Below are positions 19,162-32,239 of a stretch of DNA of 64,000 nt, one piece after another; positions within the stretch are counted from its first letter, which is position 1, and every line of letters starts with the position of its first letter. A program made the position numbers and the translations under genes. The notes below the pieces were generated by a model. The model made no database searches and had not been told where the DNA came from. It saw nothing but the letters and a program-made list of their open reading frames with translations. Source of the stretch: Lophium mytilinum (Eukaryota); NCBI GenBank assembly GCA_010093605.1, contig MU004185.1, forward strand, positions 1,695,334 through 1,759,333. Reading direction: 5' to 3'.

Positions 19162-20788
19162 TCAAACATACTTTACGCCCCACCTCTCCCCCGTCCGACT
19201 CCCGACTCCACTCCTCTCCCTAATCCCCCTCGCACACTCTTTCGCCTCCTCCATCAACTTCCCCTCATCTACCGCGACTAACTCCCCATCCTTAATTCTC
19301 ACAACCCCACCCACAACCACCATCTCTACATCCCTCCCCGTACACGCATGCACAATCGTCGTAACCGGATCCACCCCTCCCCCCTGCACCTCCCCCCAGC
19401 CCCACGGACTCGCCCCAATCCCCGGCCTCACCACCACAAAATCGGCCTGCTTCCCCTCCTCCAACTTCCCCACCTCCCCCTCCATCCCCAGCGCCCTCGC
19501 CCCGTTCACCGTCGCCATCTCCAGCACCTCATACGCGTCCACCACCCCCGCCTTCTTCCCCTCTGCACTATGAACCACCCCGGCGAGGTGCATCTCCCGG
19601 AACATATCATACCCATTATTACACGGCGCGCCATCCGTCCCCAAACACACATTCACGCCCCCGTCCCGCATCGCGGGGACCGGCGCGATCCCATTCCCGA
19701 GCTTCGCGTTCGAGGTCGGGTTGTGGCTCACACTCGTGCGCGTCCGCTCTAGAATCCCGATATCGACATCGAGATCCGGGTGCACGACGTGCGCGAGAAC
19801 GGTCTGCGGGCCGATAATATCTGCTTTTTCGCAGAACTCGAGGGGCGTGAGATCGTATTCTGAGCGGAAGATGGAGAGGTCGGCGGGGGCTTCGGCGCAG
19901 TGCATGGTTACGCCGATGGGGAGGGAGGCGTGGGCGTGGCCGATGGCGGCGTGGGTGGAGAGCGGGGAGCCGCGCGGGGTGGAGGCGGCGAGCCAGATGC
20001 GGAGGAGGGGGTTGTGGGTGAGGTGGTGGGTGGAGTGGGCGAGGAGGGCGGAGGGGAGGGACATGGAGGCGGCGTCTTTGTCGCGGGCGTCGGTGAGGTT
20101 GAGGAGGGCGTTGGTTTCGAGGGGTTTGACGAGTTTGGCCTGGGTTGGGGGTTAGGGGGGGATAGCAGCGAGTGTAGAGATAATAAAGAGAAGATATTAA
20201 GAGGCTAGAGGAAAGATTTGGTGGGAAAGGGGCACACACCAAACACGCCCTCACGCCCATCTCTCCCACCGCGCGAACCACGTTCTCGATCCCGGCTCGG
20301 TGCGTCAACATGGCTTCTAGGAAACATGTCGTTCCTGTCTTCAGCATCTCGGCTATTGTAAGCTTGGCGGCGATATAGCCATCTTCGCCTTCGTAGCATG
20401 CTTCCAGCGGCCAGATGGCGTCGCATAGCCAGGAGTGAAGGTCGAGGTCTTCAGCAAGGCCGCGGAGTAGGGACTGTGCGAGATGGGCATGAGTGTTTAT
20501 CAAGCCCGGGACGACTATCCTATTCTCGAGGGAGACTGTGGGTATGTTTTGTGGGAGAGCTGTAGGGGTTCAACAAGTGAGCATATTGCAGGGGTTGAGG
20601 GGAACCCAAGATGAACTTGACGAATGGATGAACGGACCTCCGCCTTTGTATTTTAGAGTCCCTGTTTTTCCAATTGCTGCTATTTGAGATCCTTCGACAA
20701 GAATGGAGCCATCGAGGATGATTTCGCGTTCTTTGTTGACTGTGATGATGGTGCCGTGGGTATAGAGGGTAAGAGAAAGGGAAGACAT
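19162..20788 (-). CDS. Metal-dependent amidohydrolase, MTA/SAH deaminase - guanine deaminase - AtzA/TrzA group (3 exons)
   Basis: PGLINTHAH (HxH), LLRGLAEDLDLHSWL..IWPLE, MHCAE (HxxE), LAHVVH, HNPTSNAKL, LGTDGAPCNN, GKLEEGKQAD. Confidence 0.9.
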
Positions 20789-21296: not shown

Positions 21297-23197
21297 ATGG
21301 AGGCTCCAATTGACAAAGGAAAGGAGGCTGAGCGGGAGCAAGTAACCGCATATGAGCCTTCCACAACCAATGGCGAAGTCAGCGAAGAACAAGGACGATT
21401 TGGAGCGCTGAAGCGCACATTCCTTACGCGGGACGGATGGATAGGTGACTACGTGAGTTGCAAACCTATTTCAACTTCTTGAAAAGCCATAGTCTCATAG
21501 AATCCTAGGATTATCTATACCTAGTGACTCCAAACATCTGGCCCCTAAATCGAAAGTACAAAAACTACGAGGCGCCGTTCTATGGCCTGAACGATGAAGT
21601 TCCAATCCTACTCACCATTATCCTCGGACTCCAGCATGCTCTGACGATGATCGGCTCCGTGGTGTCTCCGCCGTTGGCGATAGCTGGAGGAGCTTTCAAC
21701 TTTGACCCTATCGTGACCGAATATCTGGTCTCGACCGCATTTATCACGACCGGAATCGCGACCGCTCTTCAGGTCACCCGGGTGCATATCGCCAAAACCC
21801 CCTTCTTTATCGGCACAGGTCTGTTGTCGGTTGTCGGTCCTACCTTTGATATCATCCCCGTCGCCATCAACTATGCAACCATGCGATACAAAAATGGAAC
21901 TTGCCCAGTTGCTGCCGACGGTACTCTGCTGCCATGTCCAGAAGGTTGGGGAGCTGTGCTCGGTACGATGCTTTGCTGTGTCTGGGTCCAGATATTCATG
22001 TCCTTCGTCCCTCCAAAGACGCTGAACAGGATCTTTCCGAAACTCATTACTGGAGGCCTGTTGCTCCTCGTGGGCGTCTACTTGGTGTCCAATGGAATGC
22101 AGAACTGGGGTGGGAGCTCCAACTGCCATGATGGTAAAGGCTTCTACGCGCTTTGTCCGAATGTGGCTGCACCACGGCCATTGGAATGGTGAGTATCGCT
22201 CCTCGTCGTCATATCTCAATGTGGATATTTCTAACATGTCCAAGGGCTGACCCAAAATTGATCGGATTGGGTTTCTCGGTCTTTGTAACCATCATCATTG
22301 TCGAGACCATAGGTGCGCCGCTTATGAGGTCTGCCTCAGTAATCGTTGGGCTTGCCGTAGGCTGCATCATCTCTGGAGCGACTGGGTATTGGGACCGAAG
22401 CCAGATCAACGAGGCACCTGTGGCAACCTTTATGTGGACTCATACCTTTAAGCTCTCCGTAGACGGTGCACTAGTGCTTCCGCTGCTGATCATGTTCATC
22501 TGTCAAGCTGTCTCATGTATGCCAGATATCCTAGCCACAGCGGAGATTAGCGGTGTCGAGATCGAGGGTACCAACTTCAACAGCAGGATCCAAGGAGGGA
22601 TTCTGTGTGATGGCCTGGGGAGCTTTCTCAGTGCCCTTGGTACAGGACCGCCTATGGTCAGTCAAGCGGGAAACAACGGTGTTATTGTCTTGACCAGCTG
22701 TGCTGTGAGTGCTTCCTCTTGGATGAAATGATACGATGGCTGACTGGAAGCAGAGCAGAAGAGCTGGTTGGTGCGCATCCGGATTCCTCATCCTCATGGG
22801 CATATTTGGAAAGTTTGGCGCCGTTTTCGCCTCGATGCCTCCATCGGTACTCGGAGGCATGCAAGTGTTCCTCTACAGTACCATCGCAGTAGCGGGTATT
22901 CGTGTTCTCGGTCTGATTCCCTGGACGCGTCGTGACAGATTCATCCTGTCAGCTTCTCTTGCCATTGGGTTTATCGACATCGTTCAACCGACTTGGTTTA
23001 ACAAGATTCTGAACTACAGCGGGTCGAATGTCCATCTTCAAGGCTTTGAGCAGGGCATCAACTTGATTGTGGAAACGCCTTTCGTCATTGCGGCTGTCGT
23101 TGGAGTTTTCTTGAATAGCTTTTTACCCGCGGATAGAATGAAGAAGATGGATGTGCATGGTGATGGGCACAAGCATCCCGTGCTAGGGGAGTCTTAA
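21297..23197 (+). CDS. NCS2/NAT nucleobase-ascorbate transporter (UapA/UapC-like) with an atypical signature (4 exons)
   Basis: GWIGDYDY, LGLQHALTM, GTGLLSVVG, RIQGGILCDG, NNGVIVLT, SVLGGMQVFL, RRDRFIL. Introns at ~21453-21508, ~22189-22244 and ~22705-22752. Confidence 0.9.
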
Positions 23198-24541: not shown

Positions 24542-26255
24542 TAATGAAAATAAAGGTGGGATACTGCTGGTGGATGATGGGGCCAGGAAGTGGAGGTAAA
24601 CGGACGTATGAATTCATGAGAGCGGATGTTAGTTTGAGCGTTGCCAGCATGTCCTTAGAATCGATTACGCAGGGTATGTATCTCTTGAAGTTTCAACTGA
24701 TATCTCTCATTACGATCTTATGGTCCCTGAGCACCAAGCGCGCTTTAATTGTTCTCTGGTCAGTTGATTCTGCTATCGTTCCTCACTCTGCATCTCTGCA
24801 ATCCTGAAGCTCCAACGCCCCTTTCCCGCGCCTCGATACTACTGGGAACGAGTCCATTAATCCCAAACCCCATGACACACGCGTGCACCCGCCCGCTCAC
24901 GTGCTAGAATGTAGGTTCTCCTATATAAAACTCCCCAATTCTCTTCTTACACTTCTTCCAGCATGGGTTTCGAGGTCTTGGGCTACAAAATTGTCCTATC
25001 TCCGCACTAATGGCCTGGTCTGCAACATCGGCTTTCGTCTAGCGATATGAGTCGAGTGGTCGTGTCTGCTTCCAAAAAGTCGATCAAACCAGTTTATGGT
25101 GTGGATGGGAGTGTGTTGGATTAAGACAATCACCTACAGCAATCAATGCTAGTAGCAAACAGGGTCGCTCCATGTACATAACGTAGCGTCCCAACTCAAT
25201 ATCAGATGCTACGGCTTGCAATCAACAGAGTGTGGGTCCCAAAAGCTGACACGAATTAAAGCCATGGTGTTCGGGTGTTGGGAAGTAGAAGGTTTTCTGG
25301 CACTGGCTGATGGAGGTGGCAGCTTCAGGGATTCGGTGGTGATGAGCGTGATCGGGGGATGCTGGAGAGTATTGGGAGAAAACATGGCGAGTGGAAGAGG
25401 TTGTAGAAGGAAGTGAGGGTTGGTAGGGGTCGGTGGTGATCCAAATCATTGCAGTTGATGATGAGAGCAATTGGAGAGCATGTCGAAGAATATACTCTGC
25501 TGTCGCTATCCAATCCCACTCATGTGTCCGGGCACCTGTATGATGTTGATCTCAGAATCTCCATGAAGTGCTTCTTGATGCAATTTTTCTGGGTGTTCTT
25601 TCCTTTTCTTCTGTGAAATTGTTTCCTAGTAGAAAAAAATCTTTATATGTAGATGTTCAGGGGTGTTCCGTGGCAGTCACGTGAATAGCACATGACTTAG
25701 TCCACCCAGTAGATATGCAGTATGCAGCAAAATTTAAGAGTAATCCAACCTACAGAGATAATTCCCTTCTCATGGAAACAAGAGGCTTGGCGATAAAGTC
25801 GAAATGCTCAATTAGATCGTACAGTAAGACCAGGAGACATTGAGAAGCATTTCTTGGCTGTTACATAACTTCAGGCTGTGATATATCTCAGATTCTACTT
25901 CCATGAGGTTGGGAAATGTGACACCGTCTATATACGAGCTTCTTATGAAGAATTTGAATACAAAATGGGTACAAGAGCCACACGAAGCTGAAGAGCGTGT
26001 GGCGCAGGAAGATATCGTGGGGGCCAGACAGGAGACGGGATCTACATGCACAGCCCCTAATTCCAGGCACATGCGTCTATGCCAACAACTGGAGACCTCG
26101 ATAACCATGATGAAGACCCAATTGACGTGTTTGAGCACACATACGGGTCAATGTAGGTGTTACTCTCTCCGTAATGCGCTATCTTCTGACCGCAATCAGA
26201 TATACCCATAGAGCTCCCCATGCTTCCTTGAGCTATACTCAACCCCTCCAATGCG

Positions 26256-27263
26256 ATGGAGGTAGCTCTACGACCCGCGCCTAGTAGCGCAATCGCCCAT
26301 GGTACCGCGGTGGAAGTTCCTAGGCCATCTGACGCGGGCAGCGAGCTCCAATACTCTCTAGAAGACCTCACCGAAACCGACCGACGGCGCTTCAACACCA
26401 CCCAAGTCCTGGGCCATGGCGCGTACGCCTGGGTCGAAGAGGTCCAAGACCTGGTCAAAGGGGACACAGTAGCCATGAAAGTAATACCAGCCCTAAAACG
26501 GAAGCGCGAACAAACCAGGAAACGCGTCCAAGAAGAGGTAGAAATACTCCGGAAGATATCAGGGCATTGTCATATCGTACGGCTGCGACACGCGTTTGCT
26601 GAGAAACGAGGATTCTGCATTCTAGTTGAGCCAGTTGCGGAATGCGATTTGGCGGCTTTTTACGAGCATTGCGCTGCGGAAAAGTTCCCCGGGAAGATGA
26701 TACGGGAGATTAGGATGTGGTTCTCGTGTTTGGCGCATGGGTTGGAGTATATACATTCGCATCGGATACGGCATAAGGGTGTGTTCAAGCACTCGCTTTG
26801 TTGGATATATGCTGATTGAAGCCCAGATATCAAACCTCAGAACATTTTAGTGAAGGATGGGAACGTACTCTTCGCTGACTTCGGTCTTGCGAAAGATTTT
26901 GCGTCCTCCGACGGCCTGAGCAGTACGACGGAAGGCTACACACAGAAGACGCCAATGTACGCAGCTCCTGAAGTCCACCAGCAAGGTGAAAGGAGGTACT
27001 CTGCGGATATCTTCTCCCTAGGATGCGTGTTCGCAGAGCTTGCGTGTCTCCTAAACGGTGGGCCTGTGTCCGCCTTCTATGACTTCCGGATTAAATCGAA
27101 ATCATATGGCTCCGAAACTCATGCGTTTCACGAGACGCTTGATCTTGTTGATCTCTGGCTAGAGAAAAGTACACTCCGGATCTATCATGTTATCATGGAC
27201 ATGCTTGAAGAAGAGGCGAGCCAGAGACCAACTGCACTTGAACTTCAAGTGCTTATTTCATAA
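26256..27263 (+). CDS. Ser/Thr protein kinase domain (2 exons; 5' end uncertain)
   Basis: LGHGAYAWV, VAMK, HK|DIKPQNIL across an intron at ~26779-26826, DFG, YAAPE, DIFSLGCVF, RPTA. Confidence 0.85.
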
Positions 27264-27275
27264 AACTTCCCGGAG

Positions 27276-28166
27276 ATGCTCCCGTGCAGTCATGTTCCGA
27301 CAAATTCAGAGGGCGCGACAACGAGACCTATTCGCCCGGGACATTATCAAGTGGATCCTAAACGCCGGAGTATCGTCCCATCGCTTGTAGCTGAACCAGA
27401 AATTGCCAGTTGCGCCGTGGCCATAGGGGAGCAGTGTCAGGCAACCCAACCCACCTCTATCGTGGACAGCAGTAAGGCCTTCAAGGTAGAGTCCACCAGC
27501 TCCAACCGAAAAGAAATCTTCGAGCAGCATCTTCGAAAGATAAAGCCACCCCAGATCGCGGAACCATTCTCAAAACCAGCTATTCATGTCAAAAAGAAAG
27601 CGCTTTTGACTCCGCCCAAAATGACCACCTCAAAAGTCATCGTTCTGCTAGGCGCCGCTGGTGCAGGCAAATCTGCACTCGTGCGATCTTTCACTAGTGG
27701 CCGCTTTTACCATGACTACGATCCTACAATCCAGGACACTGCCTGCAAACCCGTCACCACCCGTTCCCTAACTACGCTCCTCCGCATCGTCGACACGGCC
27801 GGCCAGGACGAGTATGCTGAATTACGCGAAACCAGCGCGCTCGATGCGGACGGTTTCGTCATCGTTTACAGCATCGAGGATCGCGGGTCCTTCGATCGTG
27901 TACTTGGTTTTATCGAAGATGTCCAGCGGGTTTGGGCGTGGGCGCAGCAGCAGGGGCGGAAAGAGGAAGGGCAGCATCCACGGTTCCTGACAATCGTGGG
28001 GGCTAAGGCTGATTTAAAGGGAGAGCGATGTGTGCGGGTTGAAGAAGGGGAGAAGCTCGCGAAGAGTGTTGGGTGTCAGTTCTTAGAGACTAGTGCGAAG
28101 GAGAATTGGAATGTTGACGTTCTCTTTCGCGATGCTGTTGAGAGACTGGTGGAAGGAAATGGGTGA
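27276..28166 (+). CDS. Ras-family small GTPase domain with N-terminal linker (in frame with the upstream kinase; alternative start 27621)
   Basis: G1 GAAGAGKS, G2 YDPTIQD, G3 DTAGQDEY, G4 variant GAKADL, G5 ETSAK. Confidence 0.85.
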   Translation: MLPCSHVPTNSEGATTRPIRPGHYQVDPKRRSIVPSLVAEPEIASCAVAIGEQCQATQPTSIVDSSKAFKVESTSSNRKEIFEQHLRKIKPPQIAEPFSKPAIHVKKKALLTPPKMTTSKVIVLLGAAGAGKSALVRSFTSGRFYHDYDPTIQDTACKPVTTRSLTTLLRIVDTAGQDEYAELRETSALDADGFVIVYSIEDRGSFDRVLGFIEDVQRVWAWAQQQGRKEEGQHPRFLTIVGAKADLKGERCVRVEEGEKLAKSVGCQFLETSAKENWNVDVLFRDAVERLVEGNG

Positions 28167-29211
28167 GTGATGAGTACGCGCTCGCGTCGAGGTTATCGAA
28201 CTGCATCGCCCCAACTGTACCCTTTCCCGCCTTAGCTCGACATGTTTCGATGCCTTGGGAATGCTGGTAACGTCTGCAAAGGCCTGTAAGTTGAATGGTG
28301 TTGTTCCCCTTCGGTGCCCTCACTGACTGACAAACAAGCCTTGCGATAAGAGTCCGTTGCTAGTTGAAGAACGGCTAGCTTCAAGCTCTCGTTCTCGACC
28401 TCGCATTGAGTGTTCAGCATTGGACCCTTTCGAGGTATCCTTGAGGGCCATTCAGTCAACCGCTAGAGGCTTACCGACGCCTGCTAGGCAATGTGCGGGA
28501 ATAACGTATCGTTATTAACTTATTATGGGTGGAAAACTTGCGACGATGTCTCAAGGGCTAGCTCTGCTTTGAGACGGGCACATCAAGCTCAGCCTCTCTG
28601 GACGTCTGTAGCGCTGGGCTTCTTTCCAATTCGTCTGTGACTGGTGCGAGCAAACGCTGGGTATGGGCTGGCACACTCAGATTGGTCTACCCTGCAGCGG
28701 GCGAGCTGCAACACGAACATGCAGGCTTCGCAGCTGAGGCACCCTTCCGCAACGAAATCAATGTGTATCGGGCTAGTGGATTGAAAGCACCCAGCCTCGG
28801 AAGGTACTCGCCAAGTGCGCCAAAAGACTTCCATGTGTTTAGAATGCCTGGTTGTAGTCCTTGGAAGGTCCGGTTAGAGACCTACTGCTATACAATCTCG
28901 ATCTCTCGAACGGACATATACGTCCAGGCTGCAGCAAGGCTCTGCCGATTTGGATATGCCTCATGCAGGTTGGGGGGCTGTGTAGGCGGGGCTCGGGCCA
29001 TCAGCTTTACATACGGTCTCTTTCAAACTCCTTCATCATCGCCACTCCAATCTAATGACTTTGACGACATATTTGTGGATTAACAACACACAAAATCAGG
29101 ACTCAACTGATACTCGTCGCGTGCTCCGTACGCCCAGATACATTTCTTCGACGCGCGAGCTGGCGACGGCACTTCCGGTCGGTCGGATCAAGACCTTGGC
29201 CCAACTGGAAC

Positions 29212-31242
29212 ATGACTTCTACCAAATCCGCGAACGGGTCCTTACCCCTCTCATCCTCTGTTCAGGCCTTGAAGTGCCCGGTATGCGGCAATTTGGAGCC
29301 CAACACTCGACGTCCCTCGGGGCGCTATAAAACTCGCCTTGACCTTCTTCAAAAATCAAGGCAGGAAGGCTGTGAATTTTGCGCCTTGCTTGTGGATGGC
29401 ATACTTGCCCAAGAGTATGTTTTGGATGCCACGGATACCCTACTCATTACCATATATTATGACTTAAACATAAATTTGGAAGTTCGTAAAGTTTCTCTAA
29501 ACAAGGCGAAAGATGGCTCTAGCGGTACTTGGATCGCCAATTTAGAGTTTTTTACATATGAAGGTGAGTTCTCGTTCTCTTGTGCCTTCATATTCCTATT
29601 TCACCACTAAAAAATTGAAGGCTCAGAGGTGGCGCTGCCCCGTGTTCCAAATCGCCCACGCTTCAATGATTGTCCAAGCTCAGAAGAGAGCATTTTCAAA
29701 GTGAAGCAGTGGATTACTATGTGTGAATCTGCTTGGCACCATAGATGCAATGAATGGACTGTGGCATCAATGGCGGCTATCGACAAGCCGAAACGACTGA
29801 TATGTGTAGGCTCTCAAGACCATGCTCCGTTCTTATACGAGCCTTCTTTGGAATACCCAAATACGAAGTATATTGCCCTTAGTCATTGCTGGGGCAAAGT
29901 ACAGCCTATGCGCACACTCCAGGGAAATATCAAAGACATGAGGAAATCCATACCATGGATGGAGATGCCCAAGACTTTTCAAGATACCATCACAATAGCA
30001 CGGAAGCTGGGAATAGAATACGCGTGGATTGACTCGTTATGCATTGTGCAAGATGACCTTGATGACTGGGCGAAAGAATCTTCTAAGATGGGCGACATCT
30101 ACTCCGGAGCTTATCTCACTATCGCGGCCGCGGCGGCTCATGACAGTTCCGCGGGATTCTTAGGAGCACGTCAGAATCTTACAAAAGTGGTCTCTTTACG
30201 ACTGAAAGGGAGTTTAAAGGCTCACGATATTCATGTACGGCCAAGGCTTGATTCCCTGGGGAAGGGGCCATTGCAAGATCGTGGCTGGGCCTTCCAAGAG
30301 CGTATTTTGTCCCCAAGAATTCTCAGATTTCTGGAGCACGAGATGGAATGGGAATGTCACAGTGCAAGATGCTGTGAGTGTGAAAGCAGGATCTTATTCC
30401 TCAGCGAGCGGCTACCTATGCACTACACCTCGAACACAGACAGCACATATTTCTGGGGGCGTGATTTTGTTGCTGATTTCTCACGTCTGAAACTGACGCA
30501 AGAGATGGACACACTCCCAGCCCTATCGGGCATTGCTGCCTCTTATAGAGAAGTGACTGCGGAGGACTACTTGGCAGGACTATGGAAAACACACCTTGCA
30601 CCTGGACTTCTTTGGCGTTCCAAAACACCCGGTACACTACCTACAAGCTGGCGAGCGCCCTCGTGGTCGTGGGCTTCTGTAACTGGACCAGTTGACTATC
30701 GCTTCGCAGTTGGCCCAAACGTACACTCGTGTCACGTTGAAATCCTCCACGCACAATCCACGAAGGCAACAGCAGATCCATTCGGTCGCGTGTGTAGTGG
30801 GTTCATCGACATGAGAGGCCCGATCCTTCCGGCATTACTGAGCCGTGACAACTCGCAGCATCAAGTGATCCTCAGAGACTCACCAATGCCGCTTCGACCT
30901 CACTCCTCTAATGTCTATTTAGATACATGTATGGATGCGATGATCATTCCAACCTCGTCTGGGCCTCACAGGTCCCCCGTCAGGAGCCGCAACAAGCTTA
31001 AAGATCTAACCGAGGAGAGCCTTGTCGGAGAAATCTGGCTCATGGTCTTGTCTTCTGAATCAGGGCATCTATCTTTGTTTGGTTCAGGATCTCGAATAGT
31101 CTGTCTCATTCTTGGACTCTCGCCAAACGTGCAAGACTGTTATGAGCGGCTTGGTTTGTATGTCTATCGTTCCACAGCCCCATATTCCACAGCGCAAGAC
31201 TATATTGCCTCCATAGAGGCAAAAGAAGTCAGGGTCGTCTAA
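29212..31242 (+). CDS. HET-domain (heterokaryon incompatibility, PF06985-type) protein (2 exons)
   Basis: PKRLI, YIALSHCWG, PKTFQDTI, YAWIDSLCIVQDD, MGDIYSGAYLTIAA, RGWAFQERILSPR, YLAGLW, APSWSWAS. Intron at ~29564-29620. Confidence 0.92.
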
Positions 31243-32239
31243 TGAAGAGGACAACGGAAGTTAGTGGTAGAAGCTGGAGGCTAAATATGCGCTGAGGACA
31301 ATCCCGGTATTGCACCTAGGTACTGCACTACACATCTAAGGTCTTCGTATGCCAAATGCCAAGTAATATTCAAAGCTGGTGTGAGATCAGACTCTGTGCG
31401 ATGTATCCGCCATGTCTCTTCTGCCAAACACAGGCCACCCAAAGTGGACCGAGCCTCGATCCAGCAAGTGGGCAAAACCATTCTCGTTGTCCGACTAGTA
31501 GATCTTTGCCAACATTCTCTGCCCATCCAAGTTAATGAGTTTTTCAAGCATGTGGCCTGCTCCAACACGCGTGCATATAAGACAAAGATACATTCATATT
31601 ATGATGAATAGTATTACGACTTCAAATGCTCTGGAATTACTAAAAACAAAGACCGATGGCCCTTAAGACAACGGGAAATAGGGGGATCTCTATGGCCGCC
31701 GTGATATTAGCTGTGTTTGTCTGAGTAGCTTGTGCTATACCATATCAAAGCCTTTATATCCATCTTCAGCTGAATCCCGAATGGGCTTCAGGTATAGCGG
31801 TAGCCCTCCAGCGTAGATCAGAGCTTCTCTACGTTTCCGGGGATATTAGCGCCTGCTAAAAATCAATCTTCATGCACGACATGCACGTCAAACAAAAGCA
31901 TCAAACACAACCCCTTAATTCGAAGCCTGTCACTGCCACCGTCTTCTGTGAGGTCGATTTCCCTTGATACCTTTTTCTCTCCATCACAAGATAGGTTTGA
32001 TTTTTGTGAGTAAAACCACTTACCAGTGTACCACGAGTCAAAGTTGTCTCGCAAGTTCCGCGCATGCAATCGGACCATAGCCTCTTTCCAATCCAGCTCC
32101 GCCTGTTGCTGCGGATAGATCTTTGTCTGGCCGGCGTCCCGCGTGCCTTTAACTCCAGCTTTCCGGCAATGAACCCGTCGAACCAATCCCTTTTGTCACT
32201 GCACTCACTGCACCACCTCCTCTATAATTCTCTTGAATT

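Follow-up and report, generated by a model that had tools for sequence, protein, structure and literature searches.

Why should a single stop codon stand inside an otherwise open reading frame that encodes first a protein kinase and then a Ras-like GTPase? The question is raised by a stretch of 64,000 nucleotides (nt) from the fungus Lophium mytilinum (GenBank assembly GCA_010093605.1, contig MU004185.1, positions 1,695,334 to 1,759,333 of the forward strand), which is referred to here as the window and in whose coordinates all positions are given. A first-pass annotation, made from the letters of the window, described a kinase and a Ras G domain that lie in one frame and are split by a single TAA. 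It considered a fusion gene carrying a nonsense allele, possibly of the kind produced by repeat-induced point mutation (RIP), as well as a sequencing error and readthrough of the stop. The layout is borne out by the present analysis, in which coordinates and Pfam matches agree. As to the stop itself, we consider it likely to be a young nonsense allele, specific to the lineage or to the strain, of a conserved kinase–tail–linker–Ras gene, in which the kinase is truncated before its conserved tail.

The reading frame and its stop codon

The gene lies on the plus strand, as do all of the features described for it below. The start of the kinase frame is ATG 26256; one intron (26779-26826) interrupts it, and it closes at the TAA of 27261-27263, after ...ELQVLIS. 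Kinase exon 1 (26256-26778; Pkinase, 1.3e-19) supplies the start, an N-terminal segment of 45 amino acids (aa) and the N-lobe as far as the H-K-(D) catalytic loop, and the beta3 lysine of its VAMK motif is found at 26478-80. Kinase exon 2 (26827-27260; Pkinase, 5.4e-16) continues with the catalytic loop, DFG (26877-85), APE and the C-lobe.

Past the TAA, the same frame remains open for 300 codons, from 27264 to the TGA at 28164-66. These comprise 119 linker codons and a Ras-family G domain of 181 aa, which begins MTTSKVIVLLGAAGAGKS... at ATG 27621 and, with its TGA, occupies 27621-28166. The first part of the 119 codons, on the 3' side of the stop, is a post-kinase tail, NFPEMLPCSH (27264-27293; pattern P-E-[LM]-x-x-C-x-H), and the remainder (27294-27620) is a fast-evolving linker that is predicted to be disordered. 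When the frame is read through, the conceptual open reading frame (ORF) has 620 codons, and the TAA is codon 320. Arithmetic from a GC content of 0.526 gives an open frame of 119 codons a chance of about 0.005, before the requirement that it continue the kinase frame is counted.

Relatives of the kinase–Ras gene

The search query was the frame read through, with an X at the stop. Two near-full-length relatives were found, P0001 and P0002, both annotated as 'kinase-like protein' and both with Pkinase and Ras domains. P0001 is the deposited L. mytilinum protein itself (KAF2498744.1, 595 aa), whose gene model is discussed below. P0002, from Mytilinidion resinicola, is an uninterrupted fusion of 619 aa with 84% identity at 100% coverage, and it can be aligned with the 620-aa conceptual protein from end to end with a single 1-aa gap. 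The identity between the two species is 80% in the N-terminal 45 aa, 96.4% (264/274) in the kinase, 8/12 in the 12 residues after the stop, 59.4% (63/106, with one 1-aa gap) in the rest of the linker, and 91.7% (166/181) in the G domain. The first-pass annotation had reckoned with the possibility that relatives hold no fused orthologues; the search for Pkinase and Ras in relatives shows that they do.

At the stop site, the window reads VLIS-TAA-NFPEMLPCSH and the M. resinicola protein reads VLIS-Q-NFPDMLPCDH. The column of the stop thus holds Gln in the sister species and sense residues in ten other aligned relatives, and no other aligned sequence has a stop there. Conservation also extends across the stop: the Cys and His of the tail, 8 and 10 residues after it (C153 and H155), are invariant in 12/12 aligned sequences.

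More distant members of the family come from environmental sequences. Eight environmental ORFs (P0003-P0009 and P0075; 40-60% identity) run uninterrupted through the kinase C-lobe, the tail, the linker and a P-loop of the form LVLLGDxGVGK[ST]ALV (GxxGxGK[ST]), after which an intron follows. The layout is repeated at the DNA level, in one frame with two in-frame introns, in the metagenome contig L001, and 60/107 residues of its G-domain part are identical to the window. Judged from these sequences, the fusion appears to be ancestral and the stop not, and the architecture is conserved both within Mytilinidiales and among several lineages of environmental fungi. The L001 copy carries two in-frame stops of its own, a TAG at L001:537-539 in place of an invariant Trp (TGG>TAG) and a TGA at L001:1236-1238, where the window has the Arg of LLRIVDTAGQ. 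It looks like an independently broken family copy; both changes are of the transition type, and contig errors are possible.

The search yielded no G-domain orthologue that stands alone, the best stand-alone Ras proteins being 38-44% identical, and among the longer proteins searched P0001 and P0002 alone are close. On these two grounds, the G domain is known only within the fusion. Among 22 matches with several aligned stretches that were scanned with Pfam, one is Pkinase+Ras (P0165), two are fragments of the family (P0003 and P0009), and 19 are tandem-Ras or other Ras-domain proteins. Full-text literature searches, with supplements outside their scope, returned no paper on kinase–Ras fusions in fungi, and passages of PMC1325252 and PMC4986451 contain nothing on them. 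The architecture is already in public databases, unremarked.

The stop codon in DNA and RNA

Four public runs (X1-X4) were compared, as contigs, with positions 25800-28800 of the window. X1 and X2 are DNA runs, the contigs of which are colinear with and identical to the window, and X4 comes from a relative. X3 is one contig of 5,144 nt, with sample and study codes separate from those of the DNA runs. It is without exactly three GT..AG intervals, 26153-26199 (47 nt), 26779-26826 (48 nt) and 28286-28338 (53 nt), all of which the DNA runs retain. Because these intervals are absent, X3 is considered to derive from spliced RNA; this assignment is made from the missing introns, and the run is labelled 'RNA? 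(a guess)'.

The first intron (joint 26152>26200, in X3 only) lies in the 5' leader, the exon of which (26013-26152) is counted from the beginning of X3 at 26013 and contains an upstream ATG at 26079. The second (X3 joint 26777>26826, cut +1) is in frame, holds a TGA at 26817-19 and divides the HKD codon; P0001 and P0002 both read HRIRHKDIKPQN across its site. The third (GTAAGT..AG, X3 joint 28285>28339) is situated 120 nt after the stop of the G domain, either in the 3' untranslated region (UTR) of the kinase–Ras gene or in the 5' leader of the next gene, which encodes a HET domain.

Over 26826-28285, X3 and the window have 0 differences and 0 gaps. Therefore, the TAA is real and transcribed, and the interval 27249-27311, to which we return below, is unspliced. 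The word depth at the stop site is 143 in X1, 180-239 in X2 and 79 in X3, with no alternative letter listed. No splice is present in X3 at the GTGAGT that overlaps the stop TGA 28164. The contig graph of X2 breaks at 27264-27293, where a contig of 53 nt joins 23 foreign letters to 27264; these letters resemble a loxP-type mate-pair adaptor, and this break beside the stop codon is probably a library artefact.

The deposited gene model and the RNA contig are at odds. Past the acceptor of its own first intron, P0001 agrees with the window letter for letter, except that it reads ...TALELQ|GATTRP, with a gap of 21 aa; the deposited model therefore removes 27249-27311 (63 nt, GTGCTT...CAGAG), including the TAA. 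The first-pass annotation had stated that the two GT-AG introns it could draw over the stop do not restore the frame. This interval does restore it and is used by the deposited model, but the RNA contig keeps it. For its start P0001 takes ATG 26079, and it connects 26152 with 26342, whereas X3 splices 26152 to 26200. The 47-nt splice turns ATG 26079 into the start of an upstream ORF, so that the kinase must start at ATG 26256, and the M. resinicola protein begins with the same MEVALRPAPS as this start. An in-frame stop (26229-31) lies upstream of ATG 26256. The upstream ORF itself has 52 codons after the splice, ends at TAG 26282-84 and overlaps the kinase start at 26256, out of frame with the kinase. 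The 63-nt 'intron' would moreover delete C153 and H155, both of which are encoded inside it. In short, the deposited model is wrong at the start and in its first intron, and its 63-nt intron is invented. Users of P0001 are thus given a protein that the strain probably does not make, from a model without support in the assembled RNA.

Age and mutational origin of the stop

Given the sister Gln, the stop is explained most simply by a single change from CAA to TAA, the most economical path between the two sequences. In comparison with M. resinicola, there is no further stop or frameshift in the 620 codons. L001 was used as the outgroup for the G domain, since the environmental ORFs continue into an intron past the P-loop. 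This outgroup polarises nine of the 15 G-domain differences between the two species, five as derived in M. resinicola and two in L. mytilinum, with two ambiguous; five against two therefore gives no sign of relaxed constraint on the L. mytilinum lineage. Because the rest of the 620 codons is undamaged and the G domain has gathered no extra change here, the nonsense change is probably recent. Differences from X4 fall on third codon positions in 15/18 cases in the kinase C-lobe and in 8/22 in the linker (among 40 of 160 difference rows), a pattern in keeping with a kinase under constraint and a linker that evolves fast.

Of the suggestion in the first-pass annotation that the change is of the RIP type, only a trivial part stands: a single C>T at a CpA suffices if the ancestral codon was CAA. 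RIP is indicated by a TpA/ApT index of about 0.89 or more and a (CpA+TpG)/(ApC+GpT) index of about 1.03 or less. The two indices are 0.72 and 1.15 for the gene, and 0.72 and 1.22 for the whole window. Transitions relative to X4 occur about equally in the two directions (C>T 31, T>C 31, G>A 23, A>G 20). RIP is not supported on this account, the gene having neither a RIP composition nor a directional excess of transitions relative to X4.

The kinase, its tail and the linker

The Pkinase model (PF00069; cut-off 31.7) scores 71 and 59 bits for the two kinase exons and 151 bits for the intact orthologue P0002. The motifs VAMK, HKDIKPQN, DFG and APE can be read, the loop being HKD and not HRD, and by these motifs the kinase looks catalytically competent. 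In an AlphaFold 2 (AF2) model of the M. resinicola protein, the predicted local distance difference test (pLDDT) score is 96, 88 and 74 for residues 311-320, 321-330 and 331-340, respectively. Residues 311-340, which span the position of the stop and the Cys/His tail, would according to this model be an ordered part of the kinase module. Residues 341-440 have pLDDT 34-60 and are predicted to be disordered, and no Pfam family matches the linker at E<=1. The AF2 model is good for the kinase alone; for the G domain pLDDT is 32-62, from an input alignment without Ras homologues. A predicted complex of the kinase (M. resinicola residues 40-335) and the G domain, made without controls or alignments, has a score of 0.00, which counts neither for nor against their association.

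The kinase has other relatives outside the fused family, 19 of which were scanned. Eight carry ankyrin or TPR repeats, four of these eight also a fungal fucose lectin domain, and one carries a HET domain; a Ras domain occurs in none of the 19.

The Ras-family G domain

The ORF downstream of the stop matches PF00071 at 1.1e-40 with 139.3 bits (cut-off 21.6), over profile positions 2-160 of 162. The Roc model also matches this G domain (5.1e-11), with 43 bits against 139 for Ras, which fits far better. The best matches in the PDB are R-Ras2, Rap2A, Rheb and K-Ras (E 3e-28 to 4e-25). G1 (GAAGAGKS, 27651-74), G3 (DTAGQ) and G5 (ETSAK) are present, and G11, G16, K17, D58, T59, A60, G61 and S158 are invariant columns of the alignment.

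Four departures from this pattern are common to L. mytilinum and M. resinicola. Firstly, GAAGAGKS has an Ala, in comparison with GAGGVGKS, at what we take to be the position of Ras Gly12. Secondly, G4 reads AKAD (28002-13), as it does in M. resinicola; Lys and Asp are retained and Ala replaces Asn, which is found in at least 90% of 30 aligned sequences. Thirdly, an insertion of 11 residues precedes G4. Finally, there is no C-terminal CaaX motif, the Cys of which is nearly invariant among homologues: the ORF ends in EGNG-TGA and that of M. resinicola in EGSG. An additional exon past 28163 that would provide a CaaX (C-K-G-L-stop, 28275-89, in another phase) was considered and rejected, X3 being unspliced there and both models ending in G-[NS]-G.

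Substitutions of Gly12 slow the hydrolysis of GTP that is assisted by GTPase-activating proteins, and the loss of Asn116 speeds nucleotide exchange. It is a reasonable guess, by analogy with these mutants, that the G domain may be a mostly GTP-loaded switch that works independently of regulators.

Weighing the explanations

The preferred explanation can be set out as follows. The locus is one gene of a small and so far uncharacterised fungal family. The product of the family consists of an N-terminal kinase of the Ser/Thr type, a short conserved tail of the form PE[LM]xxCxH, a linker of about 110 residues that is predicted to be disordered, and a C-terminal, divergent Ras G domain without a lipid anchor. 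In the intact protein, the G domain may act as a tethered nucleotide switch or as a docking module for the kinase. In L. mytilinum, a single point change would have ended this frame early, at codon 320. Transcription continues all the same, into one spliced RNA in which the stop is present, and its translation would give a kinase of 319 aa from which conserved tail, linker and G domain are missing, provided that the TAA is read as a stop, as we infer. Fused orthologues, the Gln in the sister species and the presence of the stop in RNA all speak for the kinase–GTPase fusion with a nonsense allele that the first-pass annotation had put forward.

Several points weigh against this explanation. The comparison with M. 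resinicola is one of proteins, so that a CAA codon at the site is the simplest assumption, and X4 is silent on the stop site, with no contig over 27160-27341. X1 and X2 are possibly the source of the assembly and X3 is probably from the same strain, so that the allele may be fixed, polymorphic or a product of culture. Neither the ends of transcripts nor rare isoforms can be seen in contigs. The truncated kinase is a prediction from DNA and RNA. It is also important to note that 300 intact downstream codons and a persisting RNA fit a functional arrangement, through readthrough or a separately made G domain, equally well.

The alternative that survives best, though we regard it as quite unlikely, is a functional split, in which the G domain is made separately from Met 27621 by means of an internal promoter or reinitiation, so that the locus yields a kinase-only protein and a free Ras-like protein. 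A Met precedes the G domain in both species, the G domain is intact with no excess change on the L. mytilinum lineage, and the RNA covers the whole region. However, Met 27621 is ancestral and hence not a new start; M. resinicola, the eight environmental ORFs and L001 are all fused in one frame, and the best stand-alone candidate for an orthologue of the G domain reaches 44% identity. Reinitiation after an ORF of 319 codons is inefficient in eukaryotes, and a split kinase would lose the invariant Cys/His tail.

Readthrough, by which some ribosomes would decode the TAA at 27261 and yield the 620-aa protein, is very improbable. The downstream frame is perfectly kept and the RNA that bears the stop is present, but the preservation of the frame is equally explained by a recent mutation, and the stop is not conserved among orthologues, M. 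resinicola having Gln. A TAA followed by A, as at 27261, is moreover an efficient terminator in fungi.

There is likewise only a very slender chance that 27249-27311 is spliced at low frequency, in a minor isoform that would give a fused protein of 599 aa without the stop. The interval begins with GT, ends with AG and is a multiple of three in length, it is used in P0001, and contigs drop rare variants. The assembled RNA nevertheless keeps it while removing three other introns, and its donor, GTGCTT, is without the +5 G of the confirmed introns (GTAGGT, GTGTGT and GTAAGT). Use of the earlier AG at 27308-09 would remove 61 nt and shift the frame. The interval also encodes the invariant Cys and His and is coding in M. 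resinicola, and P0001, its source, disagrees with the RNA contig in its first intron as well.

An error of sequencing or assembly, with C as the true base at 27261, which the first-pass annotation had allowed for, has practically no chance, as T is found in the window, X1, X2 and the RNA-derived X3, a library separate from the DNA runs in sample and study code.

Comparison with known systems

The ROCO proteins (LRRK2, the Dictyostelium Roco kinases and DAPK1) likewise combine a Ras-like G domain and a kinase in one polypeptide. The first-pass annotation had described the order of the present gene as the reverse of theirs. The order, kinase and then Ras, is correct, with the caveat that DAPK1 is a ROCO member in which the kinase is N-terminal to the Roc G domain. 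P0002 differs from the ROCO proteins in that it has no COR domain among its 15 Pfam matches at E<=1 and no repeats, and ends 5 residues after the G domain; its kinase and G domain are joined by a linker that is predicted to be disordered. Because COR and repeats are lacking, Ras scores above Roc and the linker is of this kind, the kinase–Ras locus is not assigned to the ROCO family.

With the Ras-subfamily GTPases (R-Ras2, Rap2A, Rheb, K-Ras and fungal Ras1), the G domain shares the signature of the fold and G1, G3 and G5. It differs from them in the AKAD form of G4, the Ala at the Gly12 position, the insertion and the lack of CaaX, and in never having been found free-standing.

The nearest relatives of the kinase outside the family are modular fungal kinases of the non-self type, including kinase-HET, TPR-kinase and kinase-ankyrin-kinase-lectin proteins. 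The kinase-HET protein, P0066, is distant, its kinase being 29% and its HET domain 26% identical. PKinase occurs as an N-terminal domain of fungal NOD-like receptors (NLRs), according to Dyrka et al. (2014, PMC4986451); unlike the NLR-type kinases, the kinase–Ras protein has no NOD/NACHT module. Other Pkinase+Ras proteins, P0012 and P0165 (eukaryotes) and P0069 (from the coral Pocillopora verrucosa), have the same kinase-then-Ras order. They are only 27-34% identical to the present family and their linkers are unrelated, and they are probably independent fusions.

The HET neighbour and the surroundings

Immediately downstream, and likewise on the plus strand, lies a gene for a HET-domain protein (ORF 29611-31242; PF06985, 8e-32). 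X3 runs 2,504 nt past 28800 (record positions 1-2504) and by its length reaches this gene, so that the contig covers the kinase–Ras gene, a spacer of about 1 kb and the HET gene (26013-31400). The two genes may be bridged because their UTRs overlap, because transcription reads through, or because a single long transcript spans both, and a contig of this kind is no proof of the last. The first-pass annotation had seen in the neighbour a hint of a role in non-self-recognition signalling. The HET gene is confirmed as the neighbour, the two genes are bridged by an RNA contig, and a single, distantly related kinase-HET fusion is known; a role of the kinase–Ras gene in non-self or cell-death signalling remains a hint.

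Apparently belonging to the HET gene is an upstream in-frame coding exon (ORF 29065-29610, ...MTSTKSANG...) that is rich in Cys, with CPVC and CEFC motifs, and has no Pfam match. It is separated from the HET ORF by a short in-frame interval that contains a stop. Within the spacer, a stretch of about 164 nt (28584-28747) has a second, diverged copy in the genome, seen as extra contigs of X1 and X2 with 19 differences and 13 gaps. This stretch is transcribed (X3) and is absent from X4, where 28583 is joined to 28748 with 4 other letters in between. The repeat (28587-28747) has no flanking or terminal inverted repeat, and the window contains it once; a small dispersed insertion is a possible explanation.

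The remaining neighbours encode transporters, an amidohydrolase, PhoD-type phosphatases and a kexin-like protease. The amidohydrolase (19162-20569, two overlapping minus-strand ORFs) and a xanthine/uracil permease (21509-22731, two plus-strand ORFs) both appear to be split, presumably by introns or changes of frame.

Implications for the kinase–Ras family

As an event, the nonsense allele is an ordinary one. A far-reaching interpretation of the locus would be that it represents a new fungal signalling module, in which a lipid-free, self-cycling Ras-like domain is the tethered switch of a non-RD kinase and works with the co-oriented and possibly co-transcribed HET gene in non-self recognition or cell death, and in which the null alleles (the TAA and the L001 copy with its two stops) are no accidents but amount to the presence/absence polymorphism that characterises loci of this type. 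We consider this doubtful, indeed unlikely. The HET neighbour does offer a link to fungal incompatibility signalling that can be tested.

The intact form of the gene is of wider significance. It is a compact fusion of a kinase and a Ras-family domain without COR, repeats or a lipid anchor. The kinase-only strain of L. mytilinum and its full-length sister species provide a natural comparison, and in the intact form the control of a kinase by a small GTPase tethered to it could be studied in a minimal setting.

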